Source: an uncultured Clostridia bacterium
Lineage (GTDB): Bacteria; Bacillota; Clostridia; Oscillospirales; Oscillospiraceae
DNA length: 64,000 nucleotides
Assembly (NCBI GenBank): GCA_946531435.1
Contig: CAMNAO010000004.1
Location: forward strand, 6,786-70,785
Direction of reading: 5' to 3'
In this document: positions 3,778 to 31,113 of the stretch, piece after piece
Layout: each line of letters starts with the position of its first letter
How positions within the stretch are numbered: the first letter of the stretch is position 1
Notes under the pieces: generated by a model
The model's input: the letters and a program-made list of their open reading frames with translations, nothing else
Database searches by the model: none
Told to the model about the DNA's origin: nothing
Translations under genes and position numbers: made by a program

Positions 3778-5214
3778 TTATTTATAGAGAATCTTATCGA
3801 ACAGCTCGTTCATATGACGGCTGATCCTGCCGTCCAGGTCGTCCGGATGGGTGGTGGAGCTGTAAAAGGTAAAGGTGTCGTGGTCCTTGGCGTTGTTGCT
3901 GAGAAGATAGCCGCCGTTGAACATGGCATCACCGTGGCAGTGGGAAATGACCACCGTCTTTTTGAAGGGGGACTCCTCCTTCATCCTCCACCCGATCTCC
4001 GTATAGGGTTCCCCGGATACGCCGACCCAGGCCACGTCGCCGAAAACGGCGACCTGCATGTGCAGAGGCGATACGCCGTCCGGGTCATAGACCATGGTGC
4101 CCCGGGTCTCCTTCGGCGGCGTCCGGCCGTTCACCAGCAGCTCCGGATACCTTCGGTTGCAAAGATTGTCGGTAATGGACCAGTCCAGGGCGAAATTCGT
4201 ACCCACGTACTTGTGCCGCGGAAGGTTCAGGATATCACCCTCCGTCCTGATCTCAAAGCTGTCCTCGTACTCGGTGATGCTGTTCAAGGTACGGATGGTG
4301 TCGATGCCGTGCTCGCAGCCCAGGGTCATCATATTCTGATAGGCAAAACCAAAGGGCGGGTCAATGGGCTCGTTATAGCCGTCCAGCTCGTACTTGCGCA
4401 GATAGCCCATGGTACAGACGGGGTTGGTATCACCGGAGCTGCCGTTGGTCCAAAGGCAGACGCAGTCATTGCCGAACCTCTTCTCAACATATTCGCTGGA
4501 GACCCCGGGGAAATCCGGAGCGACCTTGTAGCAGCCGTCCACATCCGGGACCTCCGGGCGCAGACTGGTGGGATGGCAGCCGTAGTTTGTGACGGCGGCA
4601 ATCAGCTTGCCCTCCATATCCACAAACTTCATCACCGCCAGGGTCCTGTCCACGGGACCGCGGAAGTTACAACCCTCCATCCAGTGCCCGTCCTCAAACT
4701 GTACGTCACGATTGACGTTGATGTAGCTGTCACCCTCGGCAAACCCGAACTTTGCAGGCTGCAGGCGGGAGATCGCCAGCTCAATGCCCCCGATGACGGC
4801 GGGATGGACCACCTGGTTATAGTAATCGAACTGCAGGGCGTTGGTGGGATTGCGTCCCCATTTGATATGGGTGGAGTGGTTGTGCGTCCACACGCCGAGA
4901 ATATTCTCCGGCGGGATCCCGAAGGTTTCATGAATCTCATTCTTGAATTCGTCGTCCAGGCTCGGCCCTGAATCCAGGTTCAAAAACAGGAATTTCTTCT
5001 TCCCGTCGTCGATCACCACGATGCGGGTGTAGATATCCATGAAGATCCCCACCGTCTTGTAGGGAACCGGCTTCCAGGGAATCGACGGATAGCCGTGAAG
5101 GCCGGTCGTCGGTTTTTCCTTCGGTTGCATTTCCGCTTTGTAGTCCTCCAGCGGGAACATCTCCGCAGGGGGGTTGATGCACATTTTGGCCGCGCCGACT
5201 CTGATTTTTCCCAT
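3778..5214 (-). CDS. neutral/alkaline ceramidase-like amidohydrolase (paralog P1)
   Basis: N-terminus MGKIRVGAAKMCINPP, with His motifs WTHNHS and NYGCHPT plus GSSGD, typical of bacterial neutral-ceramidase N-domain proteins (recalled). RBS GAAGGAGG. No signal peptide. Confidence 0.6.
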   Translation of the reverse strand: MGKIRVGAAKMCINPPAEMFPLEDYKAEMQPKEKPTTGLHGYPSIPWKPVPYKTVGIFMDIYTRIVVIDDGKKKFLFLNLDSGPSLDDEFKNEIHETFGIPPENILGVWTHNHSTHIKWGRNPTNALQFDYYNQVVHPAVIGGIELAISRLQPAKFGFAEGDSYINVNRDVQFEDGHWMEGCNFRGPVDRTLAVMKFVDMEGKLIAAVTNYGCHPTSLRPEVPDVDGCYKVAPDFPGVSSEYVEKRFGNDCVCLWTNGSSGDTNPVCTMGYLRKYELDGYNEPIDPPFGFAYQNMMTLGCEHGIDTIRTLNSITEYEDSFEIRTEGDILNLPRHKYVGTNFALDWSITDNLCNRRYPELLVNGRTPPKETRGTMVYDPDGVSPLHMQVAVFGDVAWVGVSGEPYTEIGWRMKEESPFKKTVVISHCHGDAMFNGGYLLSNNAKDHDTFTFYSSTTHPDDLDGRISRHMNELFDKILYK

Positions 5215-5289
5215 AGGTTCCTCCTTCTTTCACTCTGATCCTTGTCAGTTTTTCTCCGGGAAGGGATCCAAGAGGATCCCTTCTATCGG

Positions 5290-6261
5290 TTAAGGCCGCG
5301 GAAAAATCTTTCCCAGCTCTCCGCAGAAATCGTCGGGGAGCTTCAGCTCCGCAGCGCGAAGAGAGGACTGCAGCTGCTCCACGGTCCTGGGCCCGGAGAG
5401 GACCGCTGAAACCGCGGGATTCCGGAGCACCCAGGCCAGGGCGACGTTGGATTCGCTCTCCCCCAACTGGCCGCAAAGCTCATGATACTTGGTAAGCCTG
5501 GCCCGCTCCGCATCGGACAGCCTGCCGGAGAACTTTTGGGATCTGCCTCCCTGGGCGATGGTGCCGAAGATGCTGCCGGAGAGCATGCCGCCTGAAAGAG
5601 GGCTGTGGACAATGACGCCGATGCCCTTCTCCTTACAGAGGGGAAGCACATCCTTCTCCGCCTCCCTGGCCAGCAGGCTGTAGCGATGCTCCTCCGTAAC
5701 CAGTCCCAGGATCTGCTTTCTGTCCGCGGTGGCCTGGGCGTCGGAAATATTCTCTGCGGTAAAGTTGGAGGAGCCGACGTAGTCGAATTTCCCCCGATAG
5801 AACTCCCGGTACAGCGCCTCCCAGGCCTCGGTCCAGGTGCAGTTGGGGTCGTAACCGTGCAGATACAGGATCTCGACCCTGTCGGTCTGAAGGCGTCTCA
5901 GGCATGCGTCCAGATGACGGCGGATTTTATAGGTGGAATACCCCATCACATCATTGGGCCCGTCATTGGGATCATTCATGGCGTTGAAAATCTTGGTGGC
6001 CAGGACGGTCTTCTCCCGGCGGCCGCCGCCAAGGGCAAACCATCTGCCGATGATCTCCTCGGTCAGTCCCTTCCGGTTGAAGCCGGTGTCCGGCCGAAAG
6101 CCGTACATGTTGGCGGTGTCAAAGAAGTTGATGCCCGCCTCCAGGGCCGCGTCCATGATGCGGCAGGCCTCCTTCTCATCGGTGGTGGGTCCGAAATTCA
6201 TGGTGCCGAGGGCGACCCGGCTGATTTTCATACCCGTACGGCCAAGATAAGTATATTCCAT
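5290..6261 (-). CDS. aldo/keto reductase
   Basis: MEYTYLGRTGMKISRVALGTMNFG is a typical AKR N-terminus. Its ATG overlaps the TGA of the upstream hydrolase by 1 nt (TGATG), suggesting translational coupling. The ORF-track start at 6264 is a TTG. Confidence 0.9.
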   Translation of the reverse strand: MEYTYLGRTGMKISRVALGTMNFGPTTDEKEACRIMDAALEAGINFFDTANMYGFRPDTGFNRKGLTEEIIGRWFALGGGRREKTVLATKIFNAMNDPNDGPNDVMGYSTYKIRRHLDACLRRLQTDRVEILYLHGYDPNCTWTEAWEALYREFYRGKFDYVGSSNFTAENISDAQATADRKQILGLVTEEHRYSLLAREAEKDVLPLCKEKGIGVIVHSPLSGGMLSGSIFGTIAQGGRSQKFSGRLSDAERARLTKYHELCGQLGESESNVALAWVLRNPAVSAVLSGPRTVEQLQSSLRAAELKLPDDFCGELGKIFPRP

Positions 6262-8006
6262 CAATAAAGCTCCTCAATTTTATGCGTCTGGGGATCTCTG
6301 CGGAAGCGTCGCAGGAAATCCCAGGAGAGTGTGCACATCTTCGCCGTCACCGTATGGGGCATGTTCTGCTGCCGGATCAGCCGGACGTGCTTCTTCCCGT
6401 CCACATTGACAAAGTCGCAGATATAGTGCTCGATCCCGTCCGCCCACAGGGTACGGAATTCATCGGCGGCCACGCAGGTGGTCCTCTGCGTGTAATCCTC
6501 GCTGTCAAAGGCCGCCAGGATCTCCTCCTCACTCTTCACCGGCAGGCGGTAATTGCGCATCATCTGCTGCCACTGGGGCACCCAGCGATTCCGCTTGTCC
6601 TCCTCGTTCTTGGGGAAGCCGGATTCACAGAGGCCGGTGATGCAGACCGTGGGCACGTCATAGTTCGCGATGTTGTAGTCCTTTGTGTAATCCGGCCGGG
6701 CGTTCATCCCTCCGGAGACGTAACTGAAGCCCAGGAGGGCGACGGCGGCCGGGAAGTCGGGGTTCCGGTCCGCCATGGCGAAGGAGAAGTATCCGTCATG
6801 GCTGTGGCCCGTCAGGTAGACGCGGCTGAGATCAAAGCAGAACTCCTCGGCATTGTTTTTCACGATGTCGATGGCCCGGTCATTGCTGACCACGTCCTCA
6901 AGGACGAAGAACACCAGCGCGCATTCGCCCTGGGCCGCAATATCCAGCCACTCTCCCAGGTAGCTGTGGGCCGTCACCGCCAGATGCTCGTTGCCCTCGT
7001 AGACCTCCTGAAGCACCAGGACCACGGGAAGCTTCGTCCTTTCCTCATATTGCTGGCGGGGGCAGGCGATGATATACCTCTCGCCCAGCTCATTGAAACG
7101 GATGGCGTAGATGAGCCCCTTTTTGCGCATCTCCTCCTGGAAGGCCGGGTCATTCACGGTGTCATATTTGTATTCCAGCATAAGGCCGTCCACCATATGC
7201 TTTCCCACCTCGGAATGGACGAACCATTCCCGGTCAAACCGTCCCTCGTTCATCCCGTAGGTCATGACCAGGCCGCGGCCCAGGCTGTCACAGTTGCCCC
7301 AGCGCCCCCGGATGTTAAGGACCGGCAGCTTCAGATCCCCGAAGTACTCGATGAGGCTGTCGGGGTCCACCGGATTGCCCGCCTCATCCTTGAACGCAAG
7401 GCCGGGAACCGAGGAAAGAGGCCCCTCCTCCAGCTGGGCGGAAACGTCCATATACATATGGGGGATATCACAGGGGAAGAGGATGGAGAACTCCTGGATG
7501 ATATTAAAGTAGATCATATCATAGCAGGGGAACTGGTCCACCAGAATCACCAGAATAAAATCCATGCTGCGCTTCAGCATCTCCACCTTGTCCCAGTGGC
7601 GCTTGAGGGCCCGCATCGTCCAGCGGGGATCCTTCTCATCCTCGCAGCCGAAATACATGTAGACAGGGAGCTTTTTCCACTCGTCGATGGCCTTCTGGGG
7701 GCAGAGGCAGATCCAACAGTGCTCCGGTATGTCGCCGGTTCCACCCTGGCCGGTGCATAAATAGTGAAGTCCGGCCGCATTGAGCTCCGCCACAATGCCG
7801 GGATCGTCGATTCCGTGGGTCTTATGGCGATAGAGCGGGTGCTGATGCAGGTCACCGCTGTATGCGTAGGTCGGCTCGTAATCGCTGGGCTGGACCTTCG
7901 CGTTCTCCTGCATATGCCGGATGAGATGGCCCAGGGGGGCCACACGGTCCTTCCAGTACTCGGTCTGCCAGAGCTCAATGTTGGGATAGCTGTAGTATTT
8001 GTTCAT
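6261..8006 (-). CDS. tandem pseudo-esterase + esterase alpha/beta-hydrolase (paralog A)
   Basis: Start MNKYYSYPNIELW follows GGGAGG. The C-terminal half has FDLSRVYLTGHSHDG (nucleophile elbow) and NMPH...WDFLRRFRRDP. The N-terminal half aligns to it, but the elbow reads CDIPHMYMDVS. No signal peptide. Confidence 0.75.
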   Translation of the reverse strand: MNKYYSYPNIELWQTEYWKDRVAPLGHLIRHMQENAKVQPSDYEPTYAYSGDLHQHPLYRHKTHGIDDPGIVAELNAAGLHYLCTGQGGTGDIPEHCWICLCPQKAIDEWKKLPVYMYFGCEDEKDPRWTMRALKRHWDKVEMLKRSMDFILVILVDQFPCYDMIYFNIIQEFSILFPCDIPHMYMDVSAQLEEGPLSSVPGLAFKDEAGNPVDPDSLIEYFGDLKLPVLNIRGRWGNCDSLGRGLVMTYGMNEGRFDREWFVHSEVGKHMVDGLMLEYKYDTVNDPAFQEEMRKKGLIYAIRFNELGERYIIACPRQQYEERTKLPVVLVLQEVYEGNEHLAVTAHSYLGEWLDIAAQGECALVFFVLEDVVSNDRAIDIVKNNAEEFCFDLSRVYLTGHSHDGYFSFAMADRNPDFPAAVALLGFSYVSGGMNARPDYTKDYNIANYDVPTVCITGLCESGFPKNEEDKRNRWVPQWQQMMRNYRLPVKSEEEILAAFDSEDYTQRTTCVAADEFRTLWADGIEHYICDFVNVDGKKHVRLIRQQNMPHTVTAKMCTLSWDFLRRFRRDPQTHKIEELY

Positions 8007-8062
8007 AAAAACCTCCCTGTTTATCAGAATCATTCTGTCCGGTTCCCGGTTTTTACGGGTCC

Positions 8063-9877
8063 TCAGTACAGTTCAAGGATCTTTCCGGTTTTTTCGTCCC
8101 GGGCAAAGCGCTTTAAAAAGCTCCAGGCCAGGTCGATCATGGAGGGTGTCGGCAGATGGGGGACGTTCTCGATCCCCACCAGCCGGAAATGAAACTTTCC
8201 CTCCCGGTTTTTGATATCCGCGATATAGTGGTGTACGCCGTCCAGGTACAGGATATCCGTGCGGTCGGCAGGCACGCCGATCCTTCTTGTGGCCGTATCG
8301 GGACTGGAGAGGGAGGCAATGATCTCCTCACGGCTCCTCATGGGGCAATTCATTGCCCGCAGCCTGCGCTGCCAGCCGCGGATCCGCTCCTCCACCCCAT
8401 CCGCCGGATTGTTTCCCGCGCCGCGGCCGCCGACGCGGCGGCCCGTGTGCTCCCCGGCGACGGGGTAATAGAGGCCCATCTCACACATGCCCGTCATGTT
8501 GATGAGGGGGATATCCTCATCGGCGGTGGCGAGGATCTTCTTTTCATCCGTTTCGGTCCCGGGGACGGCGCTGGTTTCGGCCAGCCAGGGGGCGTTGCCC
8601 AGGGTCGCGAGCCCCGCCAGCAGGGTGGGGTGATGGCGGGCGAACTCAAAAGCGTACATCCCGTTGTGGGAGTGCCCCATGATGTACATCCGGCTCCTGT
8701 CCACAGGAATCTTAGCCGCCGCCTCCTCCAGAATGTCCGTCAAAAGTTCGTTGGAGGCGGGATCCTCCAACACGAAAAACAGGGCGATAAACTCCCCCGC
8801 GGCGGCCAGTTTTACCGCTTCGTAGCAGTAATTGATCGAAGTGACGGCCAGATGCTCATTGGCGCTGCCCACCTCCTGCATCACAATCATGAGGGGCAGC
8901 TTCTCCGCCCCCTCCTCCAGGGCAGACTTGGGCGTAAAGGTCAGCCAGCGGTTGCCGGCGGTCTCATGGAGCAGCAGCTGAACGCCCATGCGATCCCAGT
9001 ATTCCGCAAAGGCCGGATCATCGCAGAAGTCATAGTCATGGTCCATGGCGATCCCCTGCATCATTCTCTCTCCGGTCATACTGTGCAGGAACCGCTGTCT
9101 GTCATACTGCGTGCTGCTGAAATCATCCTGCAGCACCTGTTTCCGGTTCAGGCAGTAGAGGGAGGGCCAGCGATTGCTGATATCCAGCGCGGGGATTTCC
9201 AGGGCGCCGAAAGAAATCAGGCAGGCGTCCGGATCCTCCACGGCGGCTCCGTCTCCGTCACGATAGGTATAACCGGGAACCTCCGCGATTTTGACGCCCA
9301 ATTCACGGAAGAGGGAGCAGTCCAGATACAGGCGGTCACGGTCGATGGGATAGCGGACCGAAGCCTCCTGCAGGATCTCTACGAAATACCCCCCTGTATC
9401 CGGCCCCTCCACCGCGAAAAACAGGAGCAAGGTATCCTTCGACGCGGCGATCATGCGTAGATAGGCGTCGTAATCCGCCAGCATGCGCATCAGCCAGTAG
9501 GGGTCGGAATAGTTCTCCTTATGGTAGACCACCAGAGTCTTCAGCTTGTTCACCTGGTCCCCCAGCGCGGTTTCCGGGCCGCATACGCACCAGCGAATCC
9601 CACCCATGGAACGGCAGGAATAGAAGATCCCCTGACGGTGCCAATACTCCGTGACATCCGGGGCGGCGACACTGTTGGTCTTGCGGGTATAGCAATCCAG
9701 GGTTTTGCAGTCGTCCCCCCTCAGTCCGTCCACAGGTTTTGTATACTCCCAGAAGCCCGTGCTGTCCTTTTCCCCCAGCCACTGGACCAGAGGATAGAGA
9801 GGGCTGTCCTGACGGGTCCCCCAGGGGCCGTCGTTCCACAGCTCATAGTTCGGATAACGATAATACCGATTTGTCAC
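8063..9877 (-). CDS. tandem pseudo-esterase + esterase alpha/beta-hydrolase (paralog B)
   Basis: GTG start follows GAGGAGGGG. N-terminus MTNRYYRYPNYELW. Active half has PVDRSRMYIMGHSHNG; degenerate half has PIDRDRLYLDCS. C-terminus NVPH...WSFLKRFARDEKTGKILELY. Confidence 0.75.
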   Translation of the reverse strand: MTNRYYRYPNYELWNDGPWGTRQDSPLYPLVQWLGEKDSTGFWEYTKPVDGLRGDDCKTLDCYTRKTNSVAAPDVTEYWHRQGIFYSCRSMGGIRWCVCGPETALGDQVNKLKTLVVYHKENYSDPYWLMRMLADYDAYLRMIAASKDTLLLFFAVEGPDTGGYFVEILQEASVRYPIDRDRLYLDCSLFRELGVKIAEVPGYTYRDGDGAAVEDPDACLISFGALEIPALDISNRWPSLYCLNRKQVLQDDFSSTQYDRQRFLHSMTGERMMQGIAMDHDYDFCDDPAFAEYWDRMGVQLLLHETAGNRWLTFTPKSALEEGAEKLPLMIVMQEVGSANEHLAVTSINYCYEAVKLAAAGEFIALFFVLEDPASNELLTDILEEAAAKIPVDRSRMYIMGHSHNGMYAFEFARHHPTLLAGLATLGNAPWLAETSAVPGTETDEKKILATADEDIPLINMTGMCEMGLYYPVAGEHTGRRVGGRGAGNNPADGVEERIRGWQRRLRAMNCPMRSREEIIASLSSPDTATRRIGVPADRTDILYLDGVHHYIADIKNREGKFHFRLVGIENVPHLPTPSMIDLAWSFLKRFARDEKTGKILELY

Positions 9878-13163: not shown

Positions 13164-14900
13164 TCAGGCCTTCCGGTCAAGGAGGCTCTCGTTGTACACG
13201 ACGCAGCAGTTCCCGTGGTAGTGCATCTTCACAGCGGGATTGTGGAAGCCGTTGGTGTGCTGCTGAATGGCTTCCCCGGGCTGGTCGCCCTCGGTCTTCC
13301 CTTCGGCGATCTCACGGCAGGCCTCCCGGATATTGCGGGGCACGCGCATGCGGTGGGGGCGATTGAGATGGGAGGAGAAGATCATGGTATCCTCAGAGAC
13401 ACGGGTGAAGAAGTTGTCCAGCATCTTCACATAGGCCTTAAAGCCCTCCCGGTCCATTCCCTTCAGATGGGTGTCCACATTCATGGCATCGCCGGACATG
13501 CAGATGCCGGCCTCCTTGCAGTAGAAGGCCATATGTCCCGTGGAGTGGCCGGGGGTGAAGATGCATTCCACCCGGATCCCGCCCAGGTCGAACACATCCC
13601 CGTCGTAAATGGGCTTGATCCTGCTGTCGTCGATGGTCTCCAGCATGTTGGCGTAGGTGTACTCCTGGAACTCCGTAGCGTAGTTGGAGAAGGGCTGTAC
13701 ATCCACAAAACGTCTGGCTTTGTCACAGGCGGCGACCTTCTTGATATCGTTGGGATGCATATATACCTCATCAAACAGGATTGAGCCCCCCGCGTGGTCG
13801 ATGCCCACATGGGTGCAGGCCTCGATCACAGGCTTGCCGCTGCCGGCAAAGCCGCGGATGTAATCCACCAGCTTGTCGTCGATGCCGTGTCCGGAGTCGA
13901 TGCACAGGATCTTATTGTCGCCGATGAATACCATGAGGGTGATTCGGTTGACGGTGGAGTAGTTGATGGTGACAGTATAAATGCGGTCCGTCCACTTTTC
14001 ATGGCTGTAATAGCAGGAGTCCATGACGTTCAGCCGTTTGTCCTTCGCCGCGTCCTGAAGGGAGCGGTCATAGACGGCGCAGACATTGCCCACATAGTGG
14101 CCGCGGATGTTGCGGTTCTGCTTGCGGGCGTGGAAGATCCCGTCGCAGGGGGGATCATGGTCGATGTTCCCCGCGGCAATCTCCGCGCAGGCGGTCCTCA
14201 GGTTTTTGGCCACGTCAATGGTCATTTCCAGCGGCAGGTGGGCGGGATAAATGGTAACGTCATCGCCCACAATGGAAATGAAGTGATCCAGCACCTTCAC
14301 ATACTCACGGAAGCCCGCGGTATCCAGATGCTTCAGGTGGGTGTCTGTATTCACCGCGTCACCGGTGAAGACGTATTTTTCCTCCCTGTTGAAGAAGGCC
14401 ATACTGCCCAGAGAGTGGCCGGGCACCGCGATGGCCTCGATTTTGACCCCACCCAGATCAAAGACGTCGCCGTCCTTGATATCCTTGAATTCCACGCGAT
14501 TGTCAACGATCATGTTCTTCTTGCAATAATCCGCAACGATCTTGCTCTCCAGGGCAAAATCCACGCAGTCGCAGTAGCGGTTGATGGGATCAAAGGGATC
14601 CATCCGCGTGGTCCCCACGTCAAGATGGCTGCAGTAGGCCTCATCAAACTGGCAGGCACTGCCCACATGGTCCAGATGGCCGTGGGTACAAGCACAGATG
14701 ATGGGCTTTTCGGTGCCAACCAGCTCCTCGATGGTCTTTCTCAGGTCCTGATGCATGCCGAGGCCCGCGTCAATGACCAGCACTTTTTCGTCACCGACCA
14801 CCACACCGATGGTGAAGCGGTGGACCATGGAATAGCCCTCCGTCAGGATCAGCAGCCGGTCCGAAAACCATTCGTGACTCAAAAAATTGTACTTCGCCAT
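13164..14900 (-). CDS. tandem (duplicated) MBL-fold metallo-hydrolase
   Basis: Two full-length internal repeats. Repeat 1 has the canonical THGHLDHVG; repeat 2 has THVGIDHAG. Both keep PGHS.G and GDA.N.DTHLK. The ATG for MAKYNF at 14900 follows AAAGGAGA; the ORF-track start 14921 sits inside the RBS. Confidence 0.8.
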   Translation of the reverse strand: MAKYNFLSHEWFSDRLLILTEGYSMVHRFTIGVVVGDEKVLVIDAGLGMHQDLRKTIEELVGTEKPIICACTHGHLDHVGSACQFDEAYCSHLDVGTTRMDPFDPINRYCDCVDFALESKIVADYCKKNMIVDNRVEFKDIKDGDVFDLGGVKIEAIAVPGHSLGSMAFFNREEKYVFTGDAVNTDTHLKHLDTAGFREYVKVLDHFISIVGDDVTIYPAHLPLEMTIDVAKNLRTACAEIAAGNIDHDPPCDGIFHARKQNRNIRGHYVGNVCAVYDRSLQDAAKDKRLNVMDSCYYSHEKWTDRIYTVTINYSTVNRITLMVFIGDNKILCIDSGHGIDDKLVDYIRGFAGSGKPVIEACTHVGIDHAGGSILFDEVYMHPNDIKKVAACDKARRFVDVQPFSNYATEFQEYTYANMLETIDDSRIKPIYDGDVFDLGGIRVECIFTPGHSTGHMAFYCKEAGICMSGDAMNVDTHLKGMDREGFKAYVKMLDNFFTRVSEDTMIFSSHLNRPHRMRVPRNIREACREIAEGKTEGDQPGEAIQQHTNGFHNPAVKMHYHGNCCVVYNESLLDRKA

Positions 14901-14935
14901 AGCATCTTTCTCCTTTTTCAAGCAAGCCCGAAAAA

Positions 14936-16234
14936 TCAGTCGGGCCGGTATTCGTCCACAACGATCTTTCCGGTGACGGAATCGCGCCGGAACATTTTAA
15001 AAAACTCCCAGGTCAGCCTGGCCTGTGTCAGGATGAAAGTGTGATAACAATTCTCTACGGAGTAGACGCGATAGGTGTTGATCCCCTCTTCATTATAAAA
15101 ATCCTCCCGGTAATGGCGGTAGCCGTAATAGGTTTCAACCGCCTCCCCGTCCCCGTAGATCCCCACAAGCCGGTGAAACTCGTCATCGCTGTCCCGATAG
15201 GCCAGGCACCGGTCGATGTCCCGGGGAGTGACACCCTGAACTGCCAGGAACTCGTTGATCTTTTCCAGCTTCCAGCGGTCTGCATCAATGCCGTAGGGCG
15301 GCACGACGCGGAGGGTGGCGCCCGGCGGCACCATCTTTGTGGGATCCTTCTCCAGGTAGATCCTTTGGTCCGGGGAGCGTGTCTCCTCCCACTTTAAGTA
15401 CCCCGCCCAGAGCCTGCCCATCTCCGGCGTGAAATTGGGCCGGTAGTACTTTTTCTCCTCCTTCCAGCCCTCATAGGTATGGACCTCGTTGATATGCGGA
15501 CGGTAGACGTTGGCCGGTGTGATGTTCCCCATCTCGCACATGCCGTTGAGCTGCACACAGGGCAGGACCGCGTCATGAAGCCGTTTCCTGTCCTCATCGG
15601 TATAGAAGCGAGCCGTGCTGTCCTTCAGGCGGTACTGTTCGCCGTTGCAGGGCCCCATGGCGGCGAACACCTCCGGAAGATAATGGGCGCACTCAAAGGT
15701 CTTCGTTCCGCCCTGGGAGTGACCTGTGACATACACGCGCTCGGGATCCACCGGGTATCTCTCCCTGATAATGCCCAGGAGCCTTACCAGGTTATCCGGA
15801 TTGGTGTTCTGCGGAAACACGGGGATAAATCCTTCCTTGGCGGCGATCTCCACATATCCCGGGATGTACTCGCCCGCCTCCAGCGCGTCCCCGCCGCCGT
15901 GGAGCATGAATACGAGAGGATACTTTTTGCCCGGCACGGGATGCAAGGGCGTGTAGATTACCCAGCGGGTATAGAACTCCTCATTGTCGAAGAGTTCTTT
16001 TTTCAGGCCGCAGGATGCCGCGTAGCTCCGGGCGGCGTCTCCCATGGGGTCCCTCTCCAGGGTATACTCCCGATGCAGCCGCCTGGCCAGCTCGGTGCCG
16101 TACTCACTGTTGAGAAAGCCGTTAAGATCGAATTCATTGTTGCCGGCGCGCCACATATAGCCAATATAGTTCTCAAACTGCTCTCCGGTTTCGGGATTCG
16201 TCTCCCTGGACCAGTACGGTGATGCCGTCATCAT
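14936..16234 (-). CDS. alpha/beta-hydrolase, PHB-depolymerase/LpqC-like esterase, single domain (paralog C)
   Basis: LHGGGD, VDPERVYVTGHSQGG, and C-terminal CYH...WEFFKMFRRDSVTGK. The true start MMTASPYW at 16234 follows AAGGAGG. The 81-aa extension in the ORF track overlaps the upstream gene and is Arg/Pro/Thr-rich. Confidence 0.75.
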   Translation of the reverse strand: MMTASPYWSRETNPETGEQFENYIGYMWRAGNNEFDLNGFLNSEYGTELARRLHREYTLERDPMGDAARSYAASCGLKKELFDNEEFYTRWVIYTPLHPVPGKKYPLVFMLHGGGDALEAGEYIPGYVEIAAKEGFIPVFPQNTNPDNLVRLLGIIRERYPVDPERVYVTGHSQGGTKTFECAHYLPEVFAAMGPCNGEQYRLKDSTARFYTDEDRKRLHDAVLPCVQLNGMCEMGNITPANVYRPHINEVHTYEGWKEEKKYYRPNFTPEMGRLWAGYLKWEETRSPDQRIYLEKDPTKMVPPGATLRVVPPYGIDADRWKLEKINEFLAVQGVTPRDIDRCLAYRDSDDEFHRLVGIYGDGEAVETYYGYRHYREDFYNEEGINTYRVYSVENCYHTFILTQARLTWEFFKMFRRDSVTGKIVVDEYRPD

Positions 16235-16250
16235 GGGTGCCTCCTTGTCG

Positions 16251-17600
16251 TCAGGTTTCCACGGGATACGGGGCGCCCCCGTAGCGTTCGTTGGTGTCCA
16301 GCATATACCGGTTGAGAAGGTTATTGAAGCCGGTAAAACAAGCGCCGTAGGACATCCGCATGGTGTAGGTGTCCGTCTGAAGGGACGCGTGGCAGTTGAG
16401 GGGATTCTCCTCGTATTTGGGGGGTGCGATGCCGCCCACGCTGCCGAAGCAGTCGTCAAAGAAAACCGTGGTCTCAAAGGGCATCAGATCGGCGACCTTC
16501 TTATAAATTTCCGAGAAGCATCTGCCGTTGACGGCGCAGAAGGCGATCCCGTCGATCACCGCCAGCTTAAAGCGGAATGGAATAGGCTTCTCGCCCTGGG
16601 TCGGCTTCACATTGGTGGTCTTGGGATCAAACACCATGGGCGGATGACCGAAGGGCTTCCGGGAGGGGACGTCGATCTTCTCCTCATCCGACCAGTAAAC
16701 GAACTCATCGGAGTAGTGCTCGATCTTTCCCATCGCGCGGAGAATGTCCTGCCCCTGTTCACAGGCGTAAAAACGCATAAGCTTCAGATTGGCGTCAATG
16801 GGCATATAGTCGTGAACGTAATAGAACTCGCCGGCGTCATTGACCTCCATCTTATCCATGAGGGAGTAGGTGATGGCCTGCTGATCCTGTCCGGCCCCGC
16901 AGGACCACATCAGCGGGAACTGGTGCTTTCCGGCTTTCTCCACGTAGTCAATGATCTGGCCGGCCACATCGCTGGCGAAATAGGGGAATTGGCCGTAATG
17001 ACTGTTCCAGTAAAGGGAGCAGTTCTGCATGCAGTAATTGGCCAGCACGCACATGGTCCGTCCTTCCGTATCCTCCACCCGCACGACCCGGAGCCAGGGG
17101 GCCCGGGGGCCGTTGTGGGCCATGGACTCGAAGTTTCCGATCTCGGTATACTGCTCCCGGAAGGTGTTGATCCAACTGTCCACAACAATGCCGCCGATCC
17201 TGGCGGGCCGCACCGTGGCGGCAGCCTCCCGGATGCTCTCTACCAGAGCCTTCAGATACATTTTGCCGTAAGCCTTGTGTCCCTCATCCATCTCGTCAAA
17301 GCGCTTGTCCTGCCAGCCGCTGACGCCGTTATGGCAGCGGGTGCCGCTGAAGAAGCAGTCCTTCAGCTCGACGCCCAGGTCAGCAAGGGCCTCTCTCAGG
17401 TCGTCGTTGAGGGTCATGTAGCTGAGATCATTGCAGACATACACAAAGCGCCGCTGGCCGTCGGTCAGCACCAGGACCTTCACCGACATCCGGTTATAAA
17501 TCCCATCATACTTATAGTTCGTCGTGTTTTTGATGAGTTCCAGCATCTCAGCGTCGGGAGTGATATCCCTTGACGCAACGCCTGCCAACAGTTTTCCCAT
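16251..17600 (-). CDS. divergent neutral-ceramidase-like protein (paralog P2), possibly catalytically degenerate
   Basis: N-terminus MGKLLAGVASRDITP matches the family. By-eye alignment puts TRCHNG opposite THNHS and NYCMQNCS opposite NYGCHPTS. RBS GAAGGAGG. Confidence 0.5.
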   Translation of the reverse strand: MGKLLAGVASRDITPDAEMLELIKNTTNYKYDGIYNRMSVKVLVLTDGQRRFVYVCNDLSYMTLNDDLREALADLGVELKDCFFSGTRCHNGVSGWQDKRFDEMDEGHKAYGKMYLKALVESIREAAATVRPARIGGIVVDSWINTFREQYTEIGNFESMAHNGPRAPWLRVVRVEDTEGRTMCVLANYCMQNCSLYWNSHYGQFPYFASDVAGQIIDYVEKAGKHQFPLMWSCGAGQDQQAITYSLMDKMEVNDAGEFYYVHDYMPIDANLKLMRFYACEQGQDILRAMGKIEHYSDEFVYWSDEEKIDVPSRKPFGHPPMVFDPKTTNVKPTQGEKPIPFRFKLAVIDGIAFCAVNGRCFSEIYKKVADLMPFETTVFFDDCFGSVGGIAPPKYEENPLNCHASLQTDTYTMRMSYGACFTGFNNLLNRYMLDTNERYGGAPYPVET

Positions 17601-17618: not shown

Positions 17619-19043
17619 TCAATCCGTTTTGCCCATCAGCGTATCGAACATTTCCAGCATTCTGTCACAGATCCGCTTGTCGTTCCCGCCCGGAAAGGTG
17701 GTGGTGTGGTATCTCGTAAAAGTATCGTGGTCCTTGGCGTTGTCGCTGAGGAGATATCCCCCGTTCCGCATCGCGTCGCCGTGGCTGTGAGAGATGATCA
17801 CCGTCTTTTTGAAGGGGGATTCCTTCTTCATCCTCATGCCGATCTCGCAATAAGGCTCCCCGGAGACACCCACCCATGCCACGTCGCTGAAGAGGGCGAT
17901 CTGCATACTCAGGGGGGAGACGCCGTCCGGGTCCAGAACCATCCTGCCCCGGGTCTCCTTGGCAGGGGAGCGGCCGTTCACCAAGAGTTCGGGACAGCGC
18001 TTGCGCACGATGTTGTCCGTAATTGCCCAGTCAAGGTAGTTGTCTTTACCCTCATACTTCTGCCGGGGGAGATTGAGAACCGACGCCGTTGTCCGGATCT
18101 CCATGGTCTCCTTCATCTCAACGATGCTTTTAATCACCCGGTAGGTGTCGATCCCGTGTTCCATGCCCAGCGTCATCATATTCTGATAGGCAAAGCCGTA
18201 GGGCGGGTCCGCGGGCTCATTATAGCCGTCCAGCTCATAGTTGCGGAGGTAACCCATGGTGCATACCGGGTTGACGTCGCCGGAGGATCCGTTGGTCCAC
18301 AGCATGACAGCGTCGCCGCCAAAGCGCTTTTCCACCAGCTCCGCAGCGACACCGGGGAAATCCGGGGCGACCTTGCGAACGCCGTCCGCATCCGGAAGCT
18401 CCGGCCGAAGGCAGGTGGGATGGCAGCCGTAGTTGGAAACCGCGGCGATGAGGCTGCCGTCCAGAGCCTCAAACTTCATCACCGCCAGCGTCCGGTCCAC
18501 CGGTCCGCGGAAGTTGCAGCCCTCCATCCAATGGCCATCCTCGAACTGCATGTCACGGTTGACGTTGATATAGCTGTCCCCTTCGCCAAAGCCCCACCGG
18601 GCAGGCTGCATCTTTGAGATTGCGGTCCCGATCACCTCGTCCACCGCCTTTTCGATGAGCCCGAGATAACGGTAACTCAGCTCTCTATTCGGGTCGCGCC
18701 CCCACTTCAGTTGGGAGGAATGGTTGTGGGTCCACACGCCCAGGATATTCTGGGGCGGGATCCCGTATTTTTTATGGATCGCCTCTTTGAACTCGGTATC
18801 CAGGCTGGGGCCGCAGTCCAGATTCAAAAACAGGAATCTTACGTCTCCGTTGTCGATGACCACCGCCCTGGTATAGACGTCCATAAAGACGCCGGCCATG
18901 ACCGGGGACGCATCCTTCGCCGCGCTCTCCCGGTTCATGTGCACGCGGGAAACTGGGCCGTTCTTTTGTTTGCTTTCCAAGGGGAACCAGTCCGCCGGCG
19001 GAGTAATGCATACCTTTGCCGCCCCAACTTTGATTTTTCCCAT
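17619..19043 (-). CDS. neutral/alkaline ceramidase-like amidohydrolase (paralog P3, close to P1)
   Basis: Aligns end to end with P1, including long identical runs such as GDSYINVNRD.QFEDGHWMEGCNFRGPVDRTLAVMKF. Has WTHNHS and NYGCHPT. RBS AGGAGG. Confidence 0.6.
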   Translation of the reverse strand: MGKIKVGAAKVCITPPADWFPLESKQKNGPVSRVHMNRESAAKDASPVMAGVFMDVYTRAVVIDNGDVRFLFLNLDCGPSLDTEFKEAIHKKYGIPPQNILGVWTHNHSSQLKWGRDPNRELSYRYLGLIEKAVDEVIGTAISKMQPARWGFGEGDSYINVNRDMQFEDGHWMEGCNFRGPVDRTLAVMKFEALDGSLIAAVSNYGCHPTCLRPELPDADGVRKVAPDFPGVAAELVEKRFGGDAVMLWTNGSSGDVNPVCTMGYLRNYELDGYNEPADPPYGFAYQNMMTLGMEHGIDTYRVIKSIVEMKETMEIRTTASVLNLPRQKYEGKDNYLDWAITDNIVRKRCPELLVNGRSPAKETRGRMVLDPDGVSPLSMQIALFSDVAWVGVSGEPYCEIGMRMKKESPFKKTVIISHSHGDAMRNGGYLLSDNAKDHDTFTRYHTTTFPGGNDKRICDRMLEMFDTLMGKTD

Positions 19044-20279: not shown

Positions 20280-22028
20280 TTAAAACAGCTCCCGGATCCT
20301 TCCGGTCTCCGGGTCCAGCCGAAAGCGGCGCAGGAAATCCCAGGAGAGGGTGCACATCATAGGCGTCACCGTATGGGGCATATTCTCCTGCCTGATGACA
20401 CGGAGGTGCTCCTTCCCCTCAACATTTCTGAAATCCACAATGTAATGCTCGATCCCGTCGCTCCAGAGCGTAGAAAAGCGGTCACCCGGCAGGCAGGTCA
20501 TGCGCTCCGCATATTCGGCGCTTTCAAATACGGCGAGATACCGCTCCGCGCTCCTGGGGGGGATCCGGTGGACCTTGAAGAAGTACTCCCATTGGGGCAT
20601 GAACCGTTCCAGCATGTCCTGCCTGTCCGCCGGTGGATTGCCCTCCCACATGGCGTTGATGACAACGGTCGGCATATCACGATCCATCAGTTCATGCCGC
20701 AGGCTGTAATCCCATCGGGCGTTCATCGCCTTCGGCGCCGGGGCGCTGCCGAGGAGAGCGATGGCAGTGATAAAATCCGGATGCCGGTTGGCTAACTCAA
20801 AGGCAAAGTAGCCATCGTGGCTGTGCCCCGTGGCATACACTCTCGTGAGATCGAAGGGATAGCGCTCAGCACACCGGCGGGCGATCTCGATGATCCGCTC
20901 ATTGGTGTCGTTATTCTCCATCACATAGTAAAGGAGACCGCATTCTCCCTGGGCCGCGATCTCCAGCCACTCCCCCAGATAGCTGTGGGCGGTTACGGCA
21001 AGGTGCTCGTTCCCTCCGTACACCTCCTGAAGCACCATCACCAGGGGGACGGGCTTTCGCGTCTCGTAAGCCTCCCTGGGGAAGGCTACGATATACCGGT
21101 CGCCGTATTCGTCCCGGGCAACCTCGTAAACAAAGCCCTTGTCTTCCATCTCCTTTTGAAAGCGGGGATCCTCCACTGTGTCATATCGGTACTCATACAG
21201 CATATCCCGGGCCATGCGCTTCCCGACGCCGCTGTGAATGAACCGCTCCCGGTCAAAGCGGCCCTCGTTCATGTCGTAGGTGACCACAAGGCCCCTCTCC
21301 AGGGAATCGCAGTTGCCCCAGCGGCCGGAAATATCCAGAACGGGAATGCCGGTACCAAGGAAATCCTCTATGGCCCCGTCGGGGTCCAGCGCCGCACCGC
21401 TTCGGTCGGTGTAGCGAAAGCCCTCCACCTGGGACAGCTTCCCGTAAGCCGCGGCCACGGTCACATCCAGATAGAACCGGTCCACGTCGCAGGGAAAGAG
21501 AACGGAGAACTCCTGCATGATATTGAAATAGACCTTATCGTACCCGGGCTTTTCATTGACCAGGACAGCAAAGATAAAATCCTGTCTTAACGCTGCCAAA
21601 TCGATGTATTTCTCGTAGCGCTTCACCGCCCGCATCATCCACAAAGGGTTTTTCTCATCCTCCACGTCGAACACGCATAAAACGGGCAGCTTTTTCTTCT
21701 GTTCCACAGCCCACTTCGGGCAGAAAATATACCACGGATGACCTGCCGAATCCTTACCGCCCTGGCTGGTGGCATGGTATATGAGTCCCTTTTCCTCCGC
21801 TGACTGAAATACCGCAGGGTCCTCATAGCCCCGAAGCTTCCAGTTGTAATAAGGGGATCTCTTCACATCCTCAATTGCGTCCGCGTCAAAGGATGGGATG
21901 TAATCACTCTCAAGAATCGGTGTGATCTCCTGAATATGCTCGATGAGTTTGGAAACAGGGGCGACTCTGTCCGACCATGTTTCAGTCTTCCAGAGCTCGA
22001 TATTCGGATAGGAATAGTATCTGTTCAT
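20280..22028 (-). CDS. tandem pseudo-esterase + esterase alpha/beta-hydrolase (paralog D, close to A)
   Basis: Start MNRYYSYPNIELW at 22028; the 38-aa upstream extension in the ORF track is discarded. Active elbow FDLTRVYATGHSHDG; degenerate half CDVDRFYLDVT. C-terminus NMPH...WDFLRRFRLDPETGRIRELF. Confidence 0.75.
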   Translation of the reverse strand: MNRYYSYPNIELWKTETWSDRVAPVSKLIEHIQEITPILESDYIPSFDADAIEDVKRSPYYNWKLRGYEDPAVFQSAEEKGLIYHATSQGGKDSAGHPWYIFCPKWAVEQKKKLPVLCVFDVEDEKNPLWMMRAVKRYEKYIDLAALRQDFIFAVLVNEKPGYDKVYFNIMQEFSVLFPCDVDRFYLDVTVAAAYGKLSQVEGFRYTDRSGAALDPDGAIEDFLGTGIPVLDISGRWGNCDSLERGLVVTYDMNEGRFDRERFIHSGVGKRMARDMLYEYRYDTVEDPRFQKEMEDKGFVYEVARDEYGDRYIVAFPREAYETRKPVPLVMVLQEVYGGNEHLAVTAHSYLGEWLEIAAQGECGLLYYVMENNDTNERIIEIARRCAERYPFDLTRVYATGHSHDGYFAFELANRHPDFITAIALLGSAPAPKAMNARWDYSLRHELMDRDMPTVVINAMWEGNPPADRQDMLERFMPQWEYFFKVHRIPPRSAERYLAVFESAEYAERMTCLPGDRFSTLWSDGIEHYIVDFRNVEGKEHLRVIRQENMPHTVTPMMCTLSWDFLRRFRLDPETGRIRELF

Positions 22029-23156: not shown

Positions 23157-23157
23157 C

Positions 23158-24171: not shown

Positions 24172-24187
24172 CGCTCACAATCCGACA

Positions 24188-25042: not shown

Positions 25043-25060
25043 ATCGCGTTCTCCCTTCTC

Positions 25061-25981: not shown

Positions 25982-26022
25982 AGAATTCTTCCCTCATCAT
26001 TCGGAGTTTGTCTGTTTAAGGA

Positions 26023-26053
26023 GGGGGCAGATGCCCGTCGGGCATCCGCCCCC
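26023..26053 (-). other. intercistronic stem-loop after the substrate-binding-protein (SBP) gene (14 bp including one G-U pair)
   Basis: gggggcagatgccc (26023-26036), loop gtc, then gggcatccgccccc (26040-26053). No U-tract. Its position downstream of the SBP gene is typical of ABC operons. Confidence 0.5.
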
Positions 26054-26086
26054 CAATCTGTCATGCGGGAATATGGATCCGGAAAC

Positions 26087-27790: not shown

Positions 27791-27823
27791 GTGCAATCTC
27801 CTTTTTCATTTTTTCGGTACCGG

Positions 27824-29077: not shown

Positions 29078-29109
29078 CTCAACCGTCCCGCCTATGATCA
29101 ATCTCTGTA

Positions 29110-29376: not shown

Positions 29377-31113
29377 TCAGAAGCACTCGCGGATCCCGCC
29401 CGTCTCCGGATCCCTGCGGAATCTGCGGAGGAATCCGAAGGTCAGCCACGGCATATGCGCGGTCGTTCCATGGGGCATGTTGTCCAGGGTCACGACGCGC
29501 AGGTGGGTTTTCCCTTCCCTGTTGACGCAGTCCCCGATATAGCACTCATCCCCCTCAAAATACAGGGTCTCACTGTGATCCGTGGGGACTCCCAGCTTCC
29601 GGTCGGCCTTGGAGGGGCTGCGGGAGATCCCCAGGATCTCCTCCGGGCTCTTCGGCTCGCAATTGAAGGCGCGAAGTCGGTTCTGCCAGAGGGTGATCCT
29701 TCGTTCCTCGCTGAGGAAACGGCTCTTCTCCAGGTCGATGAAGCTGTTCTCCCAGTCGCCGTTGATGTTGATAAAGGGCATGTCTACCTTTGCCATCTCA
29801 TCCAGTTCCTCCCCGCTCAGCTTCGGGGCCGCGTGGCCGTCTCCGTATCCGTGGTTTCCGCCCATCACACCGCAGCCGGCAAGGAACGTGGGATGCCTGC
29901 GGTAAAACTCCATGGCATAGCCTCCGTTGTGGGAGTGACCGGTGATATACAGCGCTGTCCGATCCAGAAAGGGGTACATCTCCCCGGCCTCCTGCACGAG
30001 ATCGATGAGCAGCTCGTTGTCCTCCACATCCTCCAGGACGAAAAACAGCAGCATCAGATCCCCCTGGGCAGCGATCTCCAGGTATTCGTACCACATCGCG
30101 TAAGCGGACAGGACCGTGTGCCGGTCCGCGGGGTTGATCTCCTGCATGATGCACATGCACGGCAGCGGCTCCTCCGGGCGGTCAAGGGCGGATTTCGGGA
30201 CAACGGTGACCCAGCCGCGGCCGTCCGTTTCATGATACCGCGCCTCGATTCCCATGGTATCGAACAGTTCCCGGACGCCGGGCTCGTCAACCCGATCAAA
30301 GGCGTATTCCAGATGAATGGCGGCGGCACAGCGTCTGCCGATATGGCTGTAGATCAGGCGGTCATAATCCAGCGGGACCGTGCCGATCCCCCCGTTATAA
30401 AAATTTGCAAGCTGCAGGCTGTTGCGGCTGGCCCATTTCCCGGTGATGTTGATCGCACGCACACCGTAATCGAAGAAGTTCTCAATAACGGGCGTTTCCC
30501 CGGGACAGTATTTCTCGATAAACCCCGGGACCTCCTCCAGCCGGCAGCCGGCGGCGCAGAAGCGCTCGATATCCAGATACAGCCGTCCGTGCCTGACCCG
30601 ATAGCGCTGGGTAAGCTCACGCAGAATGATCACCGCGAGCTCCGTCCGGTCGGATCTGCAGATGGTCGTGAAGACGAGCAGATTCCCTGCGGCGGCGGCC
30701 GCCTCCAGGCGATCCCTGTAGATCTCCACGGCATCCAGGGCATAATAGGGATCGGAGCGATAGTCGACCTCATTCAGGATAAGAAGAGTTTTGGGGTTGT
30801 TTTCCCTGCCCTCAAGAACGCTGTCCGGGATCAGGGCCATCCAGTGCTCCCCCGCGTGATTCAGGACAAGGCGGCAGCCCTTCTCTTCCCACTCGCGGAA
30901 CAGGGAATCCGGAAGCCAGGCGTTCAACCGTTTGTCAAAGGCGGCGTTCTCCTCCATCGCCCTCCGTTCCTCCGCGCTTCTCGGAAGCGGCTCATCCCGG
31001 TAGAGGCCCCTCTCGGCGGTGTAGGCAGTCAGATCAGCCAGGGGGCTGATCTTCTCCCGCCAGGCCTCCTCCCGCCAGAGCTCCATGTTTTCATATCTGT
31101 AGTACCGATTCAT
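29377..31113 (-). CDS. tandem pseudo-esterase + esterase alpha/beta-hydrolase (paralog E)
   Basis: N-terminus MNRYYRYENMELW. Active elbow RTALYITGHSHNG; degenerate half HGRLYLDIE. C-terminus NMPH...FGFLRRFRRDPETGGIRECF. Own RBS GGAGG. Flanked by terminators on both sides. Confidence 0.75.
   Translation of the reverse strand: MNRYYRYENMELWREEAWREKISPLADLTAYTAERGLYRDEPLPRSAEERRAMEENAAFDKRLNAWLPDSLFREWEEKGCRLVLNHAGEHWMALIPDSVLEGRENNPKTLLILNEVDYRSDPYYALDAVEIYRDRLEAAAAAGNLLVFTTICRSDRTELAVIILRELTQRYRVRHGRLYLDIERFCAAGCRLEEVPGFIEKYCPGETPVIENFFDYGVRAINITGKWASRNSLQLANFYNGGIGTVPLDYDRLIYSHIGRRCAAAIHLEYAFDRVDEPGVRELFDTMGIEARYHETDGRGWVTVVPKSALDRPEEPLPCMCIMQEINPADRHTVLSAYAMWYEYLEIAAQGDLMLLFFVLEDVEDNELLIDLVQEAGEMYPFLDRTALYITGHSHNGGYAMEFYRRHPTFLAGCGVMGGNHGYGDGHAAPKLSGEELDEMAKVDMPFININGDWENSFIDLEKSRFLSEERRITLWQNRLRAFNCEPKSPEEILGISRSPSKADRKLGVPTDHSETLYFEGDECYIGDCVNREGKTHLRVVTLDNMPHGTTAHMPWLTFGFLRRFRRDPETGGIRECF

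Follow-up and report, generated by a model that had tools for sequence, protein, structure and literature searches.

A predicted dead partial duplicate of the alpha/beta-hydrolase core, retained beside the catalytic copy in an unnamed family of putative serine esterases

The four long, mutually related open reading frames (ORFs) considered here, A (581 aa), B (604 aa), C (582 aa) and D (578 aa), all lie on the minus strand of a 64,000-nucleotide stretch of contig CAMNAO010000004.1, from an uncultured Clostridia bacterium of the Oscillospiraceae (this whole stretch is hereafter called the window). We consider it likely that they belong to an unnamed family of serine esterases in which a dead partial duplicate, born within the gene itself, is kept by selection beside the catalytic copy. 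Along the chain, an N-terminal motif is followed by a partial duplicate of the core of about 170 residues (the N copy), a helical linker, the catalytic core (the C copy) and a tail that brings strand 8 and the catalytic His. A fifth paralog, E, is a single-domain relative. Residue numbers in the text are those of paralog B, which is identical to database protein P0001.

A first-pass annotation of the window, based on its letters and ORFs, had pointed to four long paralogous hydrolase ORFs. All of them were found on the minus strand at the coordinates listed in Table 1, and every motif it had quoted is present in the translations (the N-terminal motif, the serine elbow, the tail, and the pseudo-sites DVS, DCS, DVT and DIE of the N copies). 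The start codons fit the family alignment, and independent gene calling on the source contig (a 76-kb metagenome scaffold) gave the same lengths of 581 and 604 aa. A and C are 53 % identical in an all-against-all BLASTP comparison, while every other pair among A-D shares 28-34 % identity (34 % for A and B).

To define the family, we searched databases with B and obtained 73 clusters, all of them full-length (560-622 aa) except for one partial match. Among these clusters no Pfam family is placed on the esterase, and the few that bear a name are called hypothetical. Seventy-five sequences were aligned, and the alignment was cut at residue 290 into an N-terminal and a C-terminal half. Compared with hhalign, the two half-profiles align from residues 76-241 onto 291-469, with a probability of 99.6 %, an expectation value (E-value) of 9e-24 and a score of 168, while N-terminal halves that had been reversed or column-shuffled score at most 23, with E-values of at least 0.025. 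Single proteins carry the same signal, as the two halves of each paralog, aligned by Smith-Waterman, beat 300 of 300 shuffles (z = 30 for B, 10.2 for D, 9.4 for C and 5.4 for A). An alignment of the two halves had been claimed for all four paralogs by the first-pass annotation, and it is borne out in the very register that was quoted (PIDRDRLYL against PVDRSRMYI). The homologous ranges in A-D are residues ~68-241 and ~283-469, and over 161 aligned positions the two consensus sequences share 48 identities. Similarly, paralog E aligns to residues 254-601 of B (E-value 2e-31) and gives a separate second match to the N copy, at residues 95-185 (E-value 2.4e-6). Outside the homologous ranges, only 13 junction columns of residues 1-75 align with the linker 242-290 (68-80 to 283-295, E-value 1e-3), so that the duplicated unit may begin near residue 63-68, and comparison of the N-terminal part with the tail (470-604) revealed no resemblance (E-value 0.2).

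The predicted structure of B, obtained with AlphaFold2 from the family alignment, reached a predicted local distance difference test score (pLDDT) of 94 and a predicted template modelling score (pTM) of 0.92. In the N-terminal half, the model shows a helix (73-81), three strands (84-91, 94-101 and 112-120), helices (128-146), a strand (149-156), a helix (164-175) and a strand (178-186), and ends with strands 220-223 and 228-232. The C-terminal half consists of a helix (288-296), three strands (299-306, 309-316 and 327-333), helices (341-359), a strand (364-367), a helix (375-389), a strand (392-402), a helix (404-415), a strand (422-426), a helix (445-452) and a strand (458-463). The order of secondary-structure elements is identical across both halves, and the pTM suggests that the two predicted domains are held in a fixed arrangement, as one rigid body. 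Modelled alone (residues 1-285, 28 sequences), the N-terminal half reached a pLDDT of 91. When this model was compared with the Protein Data Bank (PDB) using Foldseek, nearly all matches were alpha/beta hydrolases; they were weak (best E-value 1.2e-3, about 130 columns, template modelling score about 0.27), as a partial fold would give such scores. Indeed, the N copy does not form a complete alpha/beta-hydrolase fold, since it stops after the equivalent of strand 7.

Could the similarity between the halves be a product of chance, composition or alignment artefact, the N-terminal half having an unrelated fold? Several methods are indeed blind to it: a PDB sequence search with the N-half profile returned nothing meaningful, the N-terminal half is likewise invisible to Pfam and NCBIfam, the Foldseek matches are weak, and all-against-all BLASTP lists no off-diagonal alignment of N-terminal with C-terminal half inside any of A-D. 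However, sequence statistics (the hhalign and Smith-Waterman controls) refute this reading, the same register is found in all four paralogs and in E, the order of secondary-structure elements is matched, and the structural matches of the N-terminal half are almost all alpha/beta hydrolases. We give an artefact next to no weight. An unrelated fold, which would have undone the proposal of the first-pass annotation, was specifically looked for, and the profile E-value, the shared element order and the alpha/beta-hydrolase matches together indicate that the fold of the N-terminal half is not unrelated.

The N copy has lost far more than a nucleophile. In the profile alignment, a gap of 18 columns falls exactly at the nucleophile elbow and most of helix C, and in the B model the N copy also lacks strand 8 and the His loop. 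The register of the strand (which ends at 186) and of a short helix (188-193) makes residue 187 the equivalent of the nucleophile: Val occupies it in 59 of the 75 sequences, and Ile, Leu, Met or Cys in the others. The GxSxG motif is absent from every N copy, both in the 75-row alignment and in a second, overlapping 60-row set of family representatives. At the positions invariant in the C copy (Q334, E335, H342, E371, N376, R396 and E466), the N copy is degenerate throughout. The N-terminal half has conserved positions of its own, with W19, P101, E171 and W237 invariant and W96, W128, M130, Q170 and D186 above 90 % conservation. Residues whose conservation is specific to the N copy are found after strand 3 (D125, W128 and M130), before strand 5 (Q170 and E171), at the former elbow (D186) and after strand 7 (W237), in loops that would make up the active-site face in an alpha/beta hydrolase.

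Such conservation leads to an alternative in which the N copy would itself be active, as a second hydrolase site whose nucleophile (D186, S188 or E171, for example) is displaced or of another kind. D186 is Asp in 72 of the 75 sequences, E171 is invariant and position 188 is Ser or Thr in 64 of 75, all on the former active-site face. Yet no His is conserved anywhere within residues 1-241 of the 75-sequence alignment, the elbow and helix C are deleted, and both strand 8 and the His loop are missing. Moreover, position 188 is variable (Ser is found there in only 56 of 75 sequences, D has Glu, and several members have H, E, N or Q), and residue 238, the equivalent of the catalytic acid, is Glu in only 55 % of the sequences. 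The search for a displaced nucleophile thus ended with none found, and a second active site appears highly improbable. To judge from these sequence features, the N copy is a truncated dead duplicate, which would be incapable of Ser-His-acid chemistry. The first-pass annotation had stated that the N copy lost the serine in every paralog; the serine is gone, but the loss is larger and takes in the whole elbow, most of helix C, strand 8 and the His loop. Its description of an inactivated domain fused to an active one likewise holds as far as a dead copy beside an active one is concerned, except that the dead copy is a partial internal duplicate (about strands 1-7) and the protein is not made of two complete domains.

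The C copy, by contrast with the N copy, keeps a full set of candidate catalytic residues. G401, H402, S403, H404, E466 and H574 are invariant in 75 of 75 sequences, and the elbow reads G-H-S-H-(D/N)-G406. As the first-pass annotation had claimed, the elbow GHSH(D/N)G and the tail motif NMPH...W.F.RRF.RD..TG are kept on the C-terminal side only, the N copy having neither elbow nor His loop. The candidate triad sits canonically in the B model, with Ser403 after strand 5 (the elbow lies between strand 392-402 and helix 404-415), Glu466 after strand 7 (458-463) and His574 after strand 8 (564-569). Based on this modelled topology and on invariance, catalysis is assigned to the C copy via Ser403, Glu466 and His574. 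Two side observations concern the surroundings of this putative site. Firstly, its serine is flanked on both sides by an invariant His (G-H-S-H), and E371 and N376 are invariant too. Secondly, the HGG oxyanion motif, which is retained in E as LHGGG, is swapped in A-D for Q334-E335-V336 plus N340-E-H342. Conserved His, Glu, Asn and Gln residues in such number near the serine elbow could reflect a metal or an unusual substrate.

Searching the PDB with the full B model using Foldseek gave 452 matches with an E-value of at most 0.001, and the best 50 of these 452 are alpha/beta hydrolases. The top match is the polyhydroxybutyrate (PHB) depolymerase 8DAJ (E-value 1e-10), and fungal feruloyl and acetyl-xylan esterases, TmEstA and LC-Est1C are also found. 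Pfam and NCBIfam scans of A-E produced only sub-threshold matches near the elbow, with none in the N-terminal half and none for D. For NF050058 (cutoff 150), A-D reach at most 28.4 bits; for TIGR01840 (cutoff 107.85), C alone is matched, at 13.7 bits; and PF10503 leaves A-D unmatched. E scores 62 and 42 bits against the models of the PHB-depolymerase family, which is below the cutoffs as well. A-D are thus very distant relatives of the PHB-depolymerase, feruloyl and acetyl-xylan esterase branch of alpha/beta hydrolases. The family would work like esterases of the Esterase_phb and carbohydrate esterase family 1 (CE1) types, but, judged by those models, it falls outside them. A-D show no visible signal peptide and are probably cytoplasmic.

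How did the N copy arise? The N-half profile was run against 1.84 billion representative proteins and found 101 of them with an E-value of at most 1e-3 (60 at 1e-30 or lower), nearly all being proteins of 560-605 aa matched in two stretches. As this search finds only the family itself, the N copy has its nearest relative in the C copy of this family and not in another esterase, which supports intragenic duplication over fusion with a foreign esterase. Complete single-domain genes without the N copy, which came out of the same search, provide further information on the original gene. Three of them, P0139 (377 aa, present on more than 15 contigs), P0144 and P0145, keep the MNxYxxYP..W motif, the linker and a GHSHYG domain. 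Both motif and linker are therefore parts of the catalytic unit, with the dead copy placed between the two, inside the original frame of the gene. The N-terminal motif MN(K/R)YY(S/R)Y.N.ELW, which the first-pass annotation had listed as common to the four long paralogs, is present in them, with Y8, W14 and W19 conserved at 96-100 % in the family; since it is kept in single-domain relatives too, it goes with the catalytic domain. As a side observation, P0159 is also a single-domain gene with GHSHYG and no dead copy, and starts, by eye, with a signal-peptide-like stretch (MRNRFRQTCATLLAILLFISVCF...), so that it may be an exported variant of the family. The single-domain set comprises P0139, P0144, P0145 and P0159, plus positions 5001-6134 of locus L054.

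Fusion of two different esterase genes, instead of duplication within one gene, would have a precedent in known multi-esterase proteins such as DmCE1B (PMC8040265). Nevertheless, among 1.84 billion representatives the N-half profile matches the family alone and it has no meaningful sequence match in the PDB, the N copy matches its own C copy much better than it matches E (E-values 9e-24 and 2.4e-6), and single-domain members retain the motif that precedes the N copy, which places the copy inside the original frame. Fusion is accordingly a quite improbable origin, if a shade less so than a second active site was as a function. In the intragenic scheme, an in-frame internal duplication of about strands 1-7 of the same gene would have produced the N copy, which would then have lost the nucleophile elbow and most of helix C; strand 8 and the His loop would either never have been part of it or have been lost later.

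Rooted on E, a neighbour-joining tree of the catalytic region groups the single-domain genes into one clade in 90 of 100 replicates; this clade is nested in the two-copy family and is basal in 0 of 100. Single-domain forms thus likely arose by secondary loss, with the proviso that the tree method is simple and the outgroup E only ~26 % identical. We did not find the N copy as a separate neighbouring gene beside single-domain relatives (the gene upstream of P0139 encodes a GDSL lipase). The family itself is found in Lachnospiraceae, Oscillospiraceae, Clostridium, Diplocloster, Faecalicatena, Pseudobutyrivibrio and Ruminococcus, and also in genome bins of Spirochaetes, Anaerolineales and Acidobacteria, often with several copies per genome. 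The N copy is retained in ~60 clusters at 50 % identity and is present in all of the 47 full-length two-domain representatives examined. Two-copy members from bins labelled Anaerolineales, Oceanispirochaeta, Sphaerochaetaceae, Acidobacteriaceae and 'proteobacterium' share 35-44 % identity with B (loci L004, L005, L009, L016, L017, L021, L037 and L048), often with two copies within ~15 kb, which suggests either horizontal spread of the gene set or mis-binned contigs.

Retention of the N copy raises the question of whether it serves any purpose. Using orthologs from three Diplocloster species, for which synonymous divergence (dS) is unsaturated (0.24-0.60), we found a ratio of nonsynonymous to synonymous substitution rates (dN/dS) of 0.14-0.17 in the N copy versus 0.03-0.06 in the catalytic core. 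The N copy is clearly under purifying selection, which backs the view of the first-pass annotation that a dead domain so retained has some role. Under an opposite view, the N copy would be a decaying, functionless relic that persists since its removal needs a precise in-frame deletion. The N copy is less conserved than the core (paralog identities of 20-46 % versus 30-55 %, with a corresponding difference in column entropy given below), and in one clade it has been lost while the gene neighbourhood stayed the same. These observations have to be set against the dN/dS values, the four invariant residues W19, P101, E171 and W237, the confident modelling of the N-terminal half alone as a folded domain, and its presence in ~60 clusters across Clostridia, Spirochaetes, Anaerolineales and Acidobacteria. 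On balance we regard the relic as improbable, although it is the least improbable of the rival explanations.

If the N copy has a role, comparison of one-copy and two-copy members suggests where it may be exerted. Among C-domain positions that are at least 90 % conserved in two-copy sequences, E335 stands out as missing without the N copy: it is conserved at 94 % in 47 two-copy sequences and absent from the four sequences (4/4) that have none. In these four sequences, the QEV...NEH loop, which is 94-100 % conserved in two-copy members, is 4-8 residues shorter and has no NEH, while S403, H404, R396, E371 and H574 are kept, plus an acidic residue at 466. This pattern suggests that the dead copy may work with the active-site region of the live copy, as a pocket wall or as a stabiliser. 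In the mechanism that we propose, the N copy would be kept as a folded domain forming one rigid body with the catalytic domain; its former active-site face (W128, M130, Q170, E171, D186 and W237) probably packs on the QEV...NEH loop near the oxyanion hole, or shares a pocket with it; and its role would most likely be structural or substrate-shaping.

Several observations weigh against a selected dead partner beside a catalytic copy. The N copy is more variable than the catalytic core, with a mean column entropy of 2.12 versus 1.64 bits, and its dN/dS is 2-5 times that of the core. The association of the QEV...NEH loop with the N copy depends on one evolutionary event. A complete single-domain clade (P0139, on more than 15 contigs) manages without the N copy in a similar gene neighbourhood, so that neither folding nor catalysis requires this copy as a general rule. 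Finally, QEV is unusual where the canonical HGG oxyanion motif is expected, and the competence of the C copy is read from invariance only.

Alpha/beta-hydrolase folds that lack a nucleophile and are kept for binding or scaffolding are known from DPP6/DPPX, the neuroligins and the cholinesterase-like domain of thyroglobulin, and DPPX (1XFD) is among the Foldseek matches of the N-terminal half. Those are whole domains with point substitutions, in separate proteins or receptor domains, whereas a partial intragenic duplicate here stands beside its active parent. Enzymes paired with a dead duplicate include the pseudokinase-kinase pair of JAK, the D1/D2 domains of receptor tyrosine phosphatases and double hot-dog thioesterases with one active half. 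The logic is the same (duplication, one copy dead, retained for regulation or to complete the active unit), but folds and chemistry differ. LC-Est1 (3WYD) is the best PDB profile match (E-value 4.5e-8 over the elbow region) and a Foldseek match too; this metagenome esterase reportedly carries a long N-terminal extension of unknown structure, its C-terminal esterase domain alone having been solved.

The closest relationship is with the Esterase_phb and fungal CE1-type enzymes, an ESTHER family (Esterase_phb) being described in PMC12103068. LtPHBase (8DAJ), AsFaeE (8IY8) and AoAxeB (9J07) are the best structural matches of the full model (E-values 1e-10 to 3e-7), and the Esterase_phb models NF050058, TIGR01840 and PF10503 are the best weak profile matches near the elbow; the alpha/beta-hydrolase fold and canonical triad positions are held in common. 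However, those enzymes are single-domain proteins of ~250-300 aa, mostly secreted, and the family studied here scores 13-28 bits against cutoffs of 107-150. It also differs from them by its GHSH(D/N)G elbow, by QEV...NEH in place of HGG, by Glu as the acid, and by a ~50-residue helical N-terminal extension, a ~95-residue insertion after strand 7 and the dead duplicate upstream. DmCE1B from the gut bacterium Dysgonomonas mossii (7B5V) similarly carries two homologous alpha/beta-hydrolase esterase domains in one polypeptide. Its two CE1 domains are 35 % identical and both complete with a Ser-His-Asp/Glu triad; a CBM48 lies between them, the protein is secreted, and one domain is almost inactive on model substrates (PMC8040265). 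Unlike in DmCE1B, the N copy here is truncated, lacks all triad elements and is contiguous with the catalytic domain.

Table 1. Coordinates of the esterase paralogs, their predicted parts and neighbouring genes in the window
Feature	Position	Strand	Details
Paralog A	6261..8006	-	581 aa, two-copy esterase; ORF and source-contig gene call
A, N-terminal motif MNKYYSYPNIELW	7950..8006	-	residues 1-19
A, dead partial alpha/beta-hydrolase core copy (predicted)	7287..7817	-	residues 64-240; pseudo-site YMDVS; nucleophile-equivalent Val188 codon 7443-7445
A, helical linker	7140..7286	-	residues 241-289; equals N-terminal extension of the catalytic domain; present too in E and P0139
A, catalytic core copy (assigned)	6618..7139	-	residues 290-463; Ser402 codon 6801-6803 (TGHSHDG); Glu461 codon 6624-6626
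A, C-terminal tail	6264..6617	-	strand 8 and His551 (codon 6354-6356, NMPH)
Paralog B	8063..9877	-	604 aa, GTG start, two-copy esterase; ORF
B, N-terminal motif MTNRYYRYPNYELW	9818..9877	-	residues 1-20
B, dead partial copy (predicted)	9155..9676	-	residues 68-241; pseudo-site YLDCS; nucleophile-equivalent Cys187 codon 9317-9319
B, linker helices	9008..9154	-	residues 242-290; conserved S242, D259, S266, G269, E279
B, catalytic core copy (assigned)	8471..9007	-	residues 291-469; Ser403 codon 8669-8671 (GHSHNG); Glu466 codon 8480-8482; Q334-E335-V336...N340-E-H342 loop after strand 3
B, tail	8066..8470	-	residues 470-604; insertion, strand 8 (564-569), His574 (codon 8156-8158)
Paralog C	20280..22028	-	582 aa; dead copy 21306-21833 (YLDVT); catalytic core 20634-21158
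C, candidate triad codons		-	Ser403 20820-20822; Glu462 20643-20645; His552 20373-20375
Paralog D	29377..31113	-	578 aa; dead copy 30421-30924 (YLDIE); catalytic core 29740-30273
D, candidate triad codons		-	Ser394 29932-29934; Glu455 29749-29751; His548 29470-29472
Paralog E	14936..16234	-	432 aa from MMTASPYW; single-domain relative; canonical HGGG and GHSQGG; no N copy
Opp/Dpp-type ABC importer	22173-27796	-	in the esterase cluster
Ceramidase-type protein	3778-5214	-	Pfam Ceramidase_alk, E-value 2.8e-9
Paralog of the 3778-5214 protein	17619-19043	-	clear paralog, no Pfam match
Third protein, no family match	16251-17600	-	in the esterase cluster

The five esterases are located within a minus-strand cluster that extends from ~3.8 to 35.4 kb of the window (Table 1). 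For E, the mechanical ORF (14936-16477, minus strand, 513 aa, TTG start) overlaps the upstream gene and opens with a low-complexity stretch; the true start is likely the ATG at 16234 (MMTASPYW), 16 nt below the stop of the upstream gene. In addition to the ATP-binding cassette (ABC) importer and the ceramidase-type proteins, the cluster holds a double metallo-beta-lactamase (MBL)-fold protein, a beta-propeller lactonase, an aldo-keto reductase (AKR), a PatB-type C-S lyase, a PfkB kinase, a Zn-dehydrogenase, an M28 peptidase, a MatE exporter and two ROK regulators. Similar neighbours recur elsewhere. Within 6 kb of the esterase at 51 loci of other genomes, we counted Opp/Dpp genes 22 times, MBL-fold genes 16 and 7 times, AKR 16 times and MatE 15 times, followed by the rarer major facilitator superfamily (MFS, 12), YdjC (10), COesterase (7) and lactonase (6) genes. 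P0139 has ceramidase-like, MBL, GDSL-lipase, MFS and MatE genes as neighbours. The ceramidase-type proteins seem to belong to the same pathway as the esterases, and the overall content suggests that the esterases form a cytoplasmic battery, which would process imported compounds bearing esters or lactones. When the neighbouring genes were scanned against NCBIfam, neither a pathway nor a substrate emerged, and no glycoside hydrolase was identified among genes scanned from ~600 to 40,600, the resemblance to CE1 being structural only.

Two other families of the cluster deserve mention. The MBL-fold protein (13164-14921, minus strand, 585 aa) consists of two tandem halves (two Lactamase_B stretches), the first of which keeps HxHxDH (THGHLDH) while the second reads THVGIDH, its second His being replaced by Gly. 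It is thus a second enzyme family in the same cluster with an internal duplication and one degenerate copy. Both single (~316 aa) and double (~596 aa) MBL genes recur beside the esterase family in other genomes. The two ROK-family regulators (27824-29101 and 31280-32497, minus strand) are paralogs with an N-terminal winged helix, and they flank esterase D. No ROK counterpart was found within 6 kb of the esterase across the 51 loci from other genomes, so that this regulation appears to be lineage-specific.

The family is rare (101 representatives in 1.84 billion), unnamed and without a Pfam or NCBIfam match above cutoff, and is thus a database blind spot in gut and rumen Clostridia and a few other phyla. 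As half of each protein is unseen by domain databases, that half should not be annotated as a second esterase. Limited keyword searches of the literature returned no description of the family, nor of any dead partial intragenic duplicate of an alpha/beta hydrolase, although the principle of an enzyme accompanied by its dead duplicate is already familiar. The family offers a compact test case of how a partial duplicate of the well-studied alpha/beta-hydrolase scaffold is recycled non-catalytically. It also provides a natural experiment, as one-copy and two-copy relatives share a gene neighbourhood and differ in the loop beside the oxyanion hole.

A more speculative extension, which we put forward tentatively and hold to be rather unlikely as it stands, is that the dead partner is obligatory and builds a composite active site, with its former catalytic face docked on the QEV...NEH loop of the C copy. 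The protein would then be an intramolecular pseudo-dimer in which the N copy sets or gates specificity, and the four paralogs would form a specificity-diversified set for one imported, ester-rich class of substrates. If this were true, the family would provide the first described pair of an enzyme and its dead duplicate within the alpha/beta-hydrolase fold, and the N copies, which are the most diverged part of the four paralogs, would underlie the diversification of their specificity.

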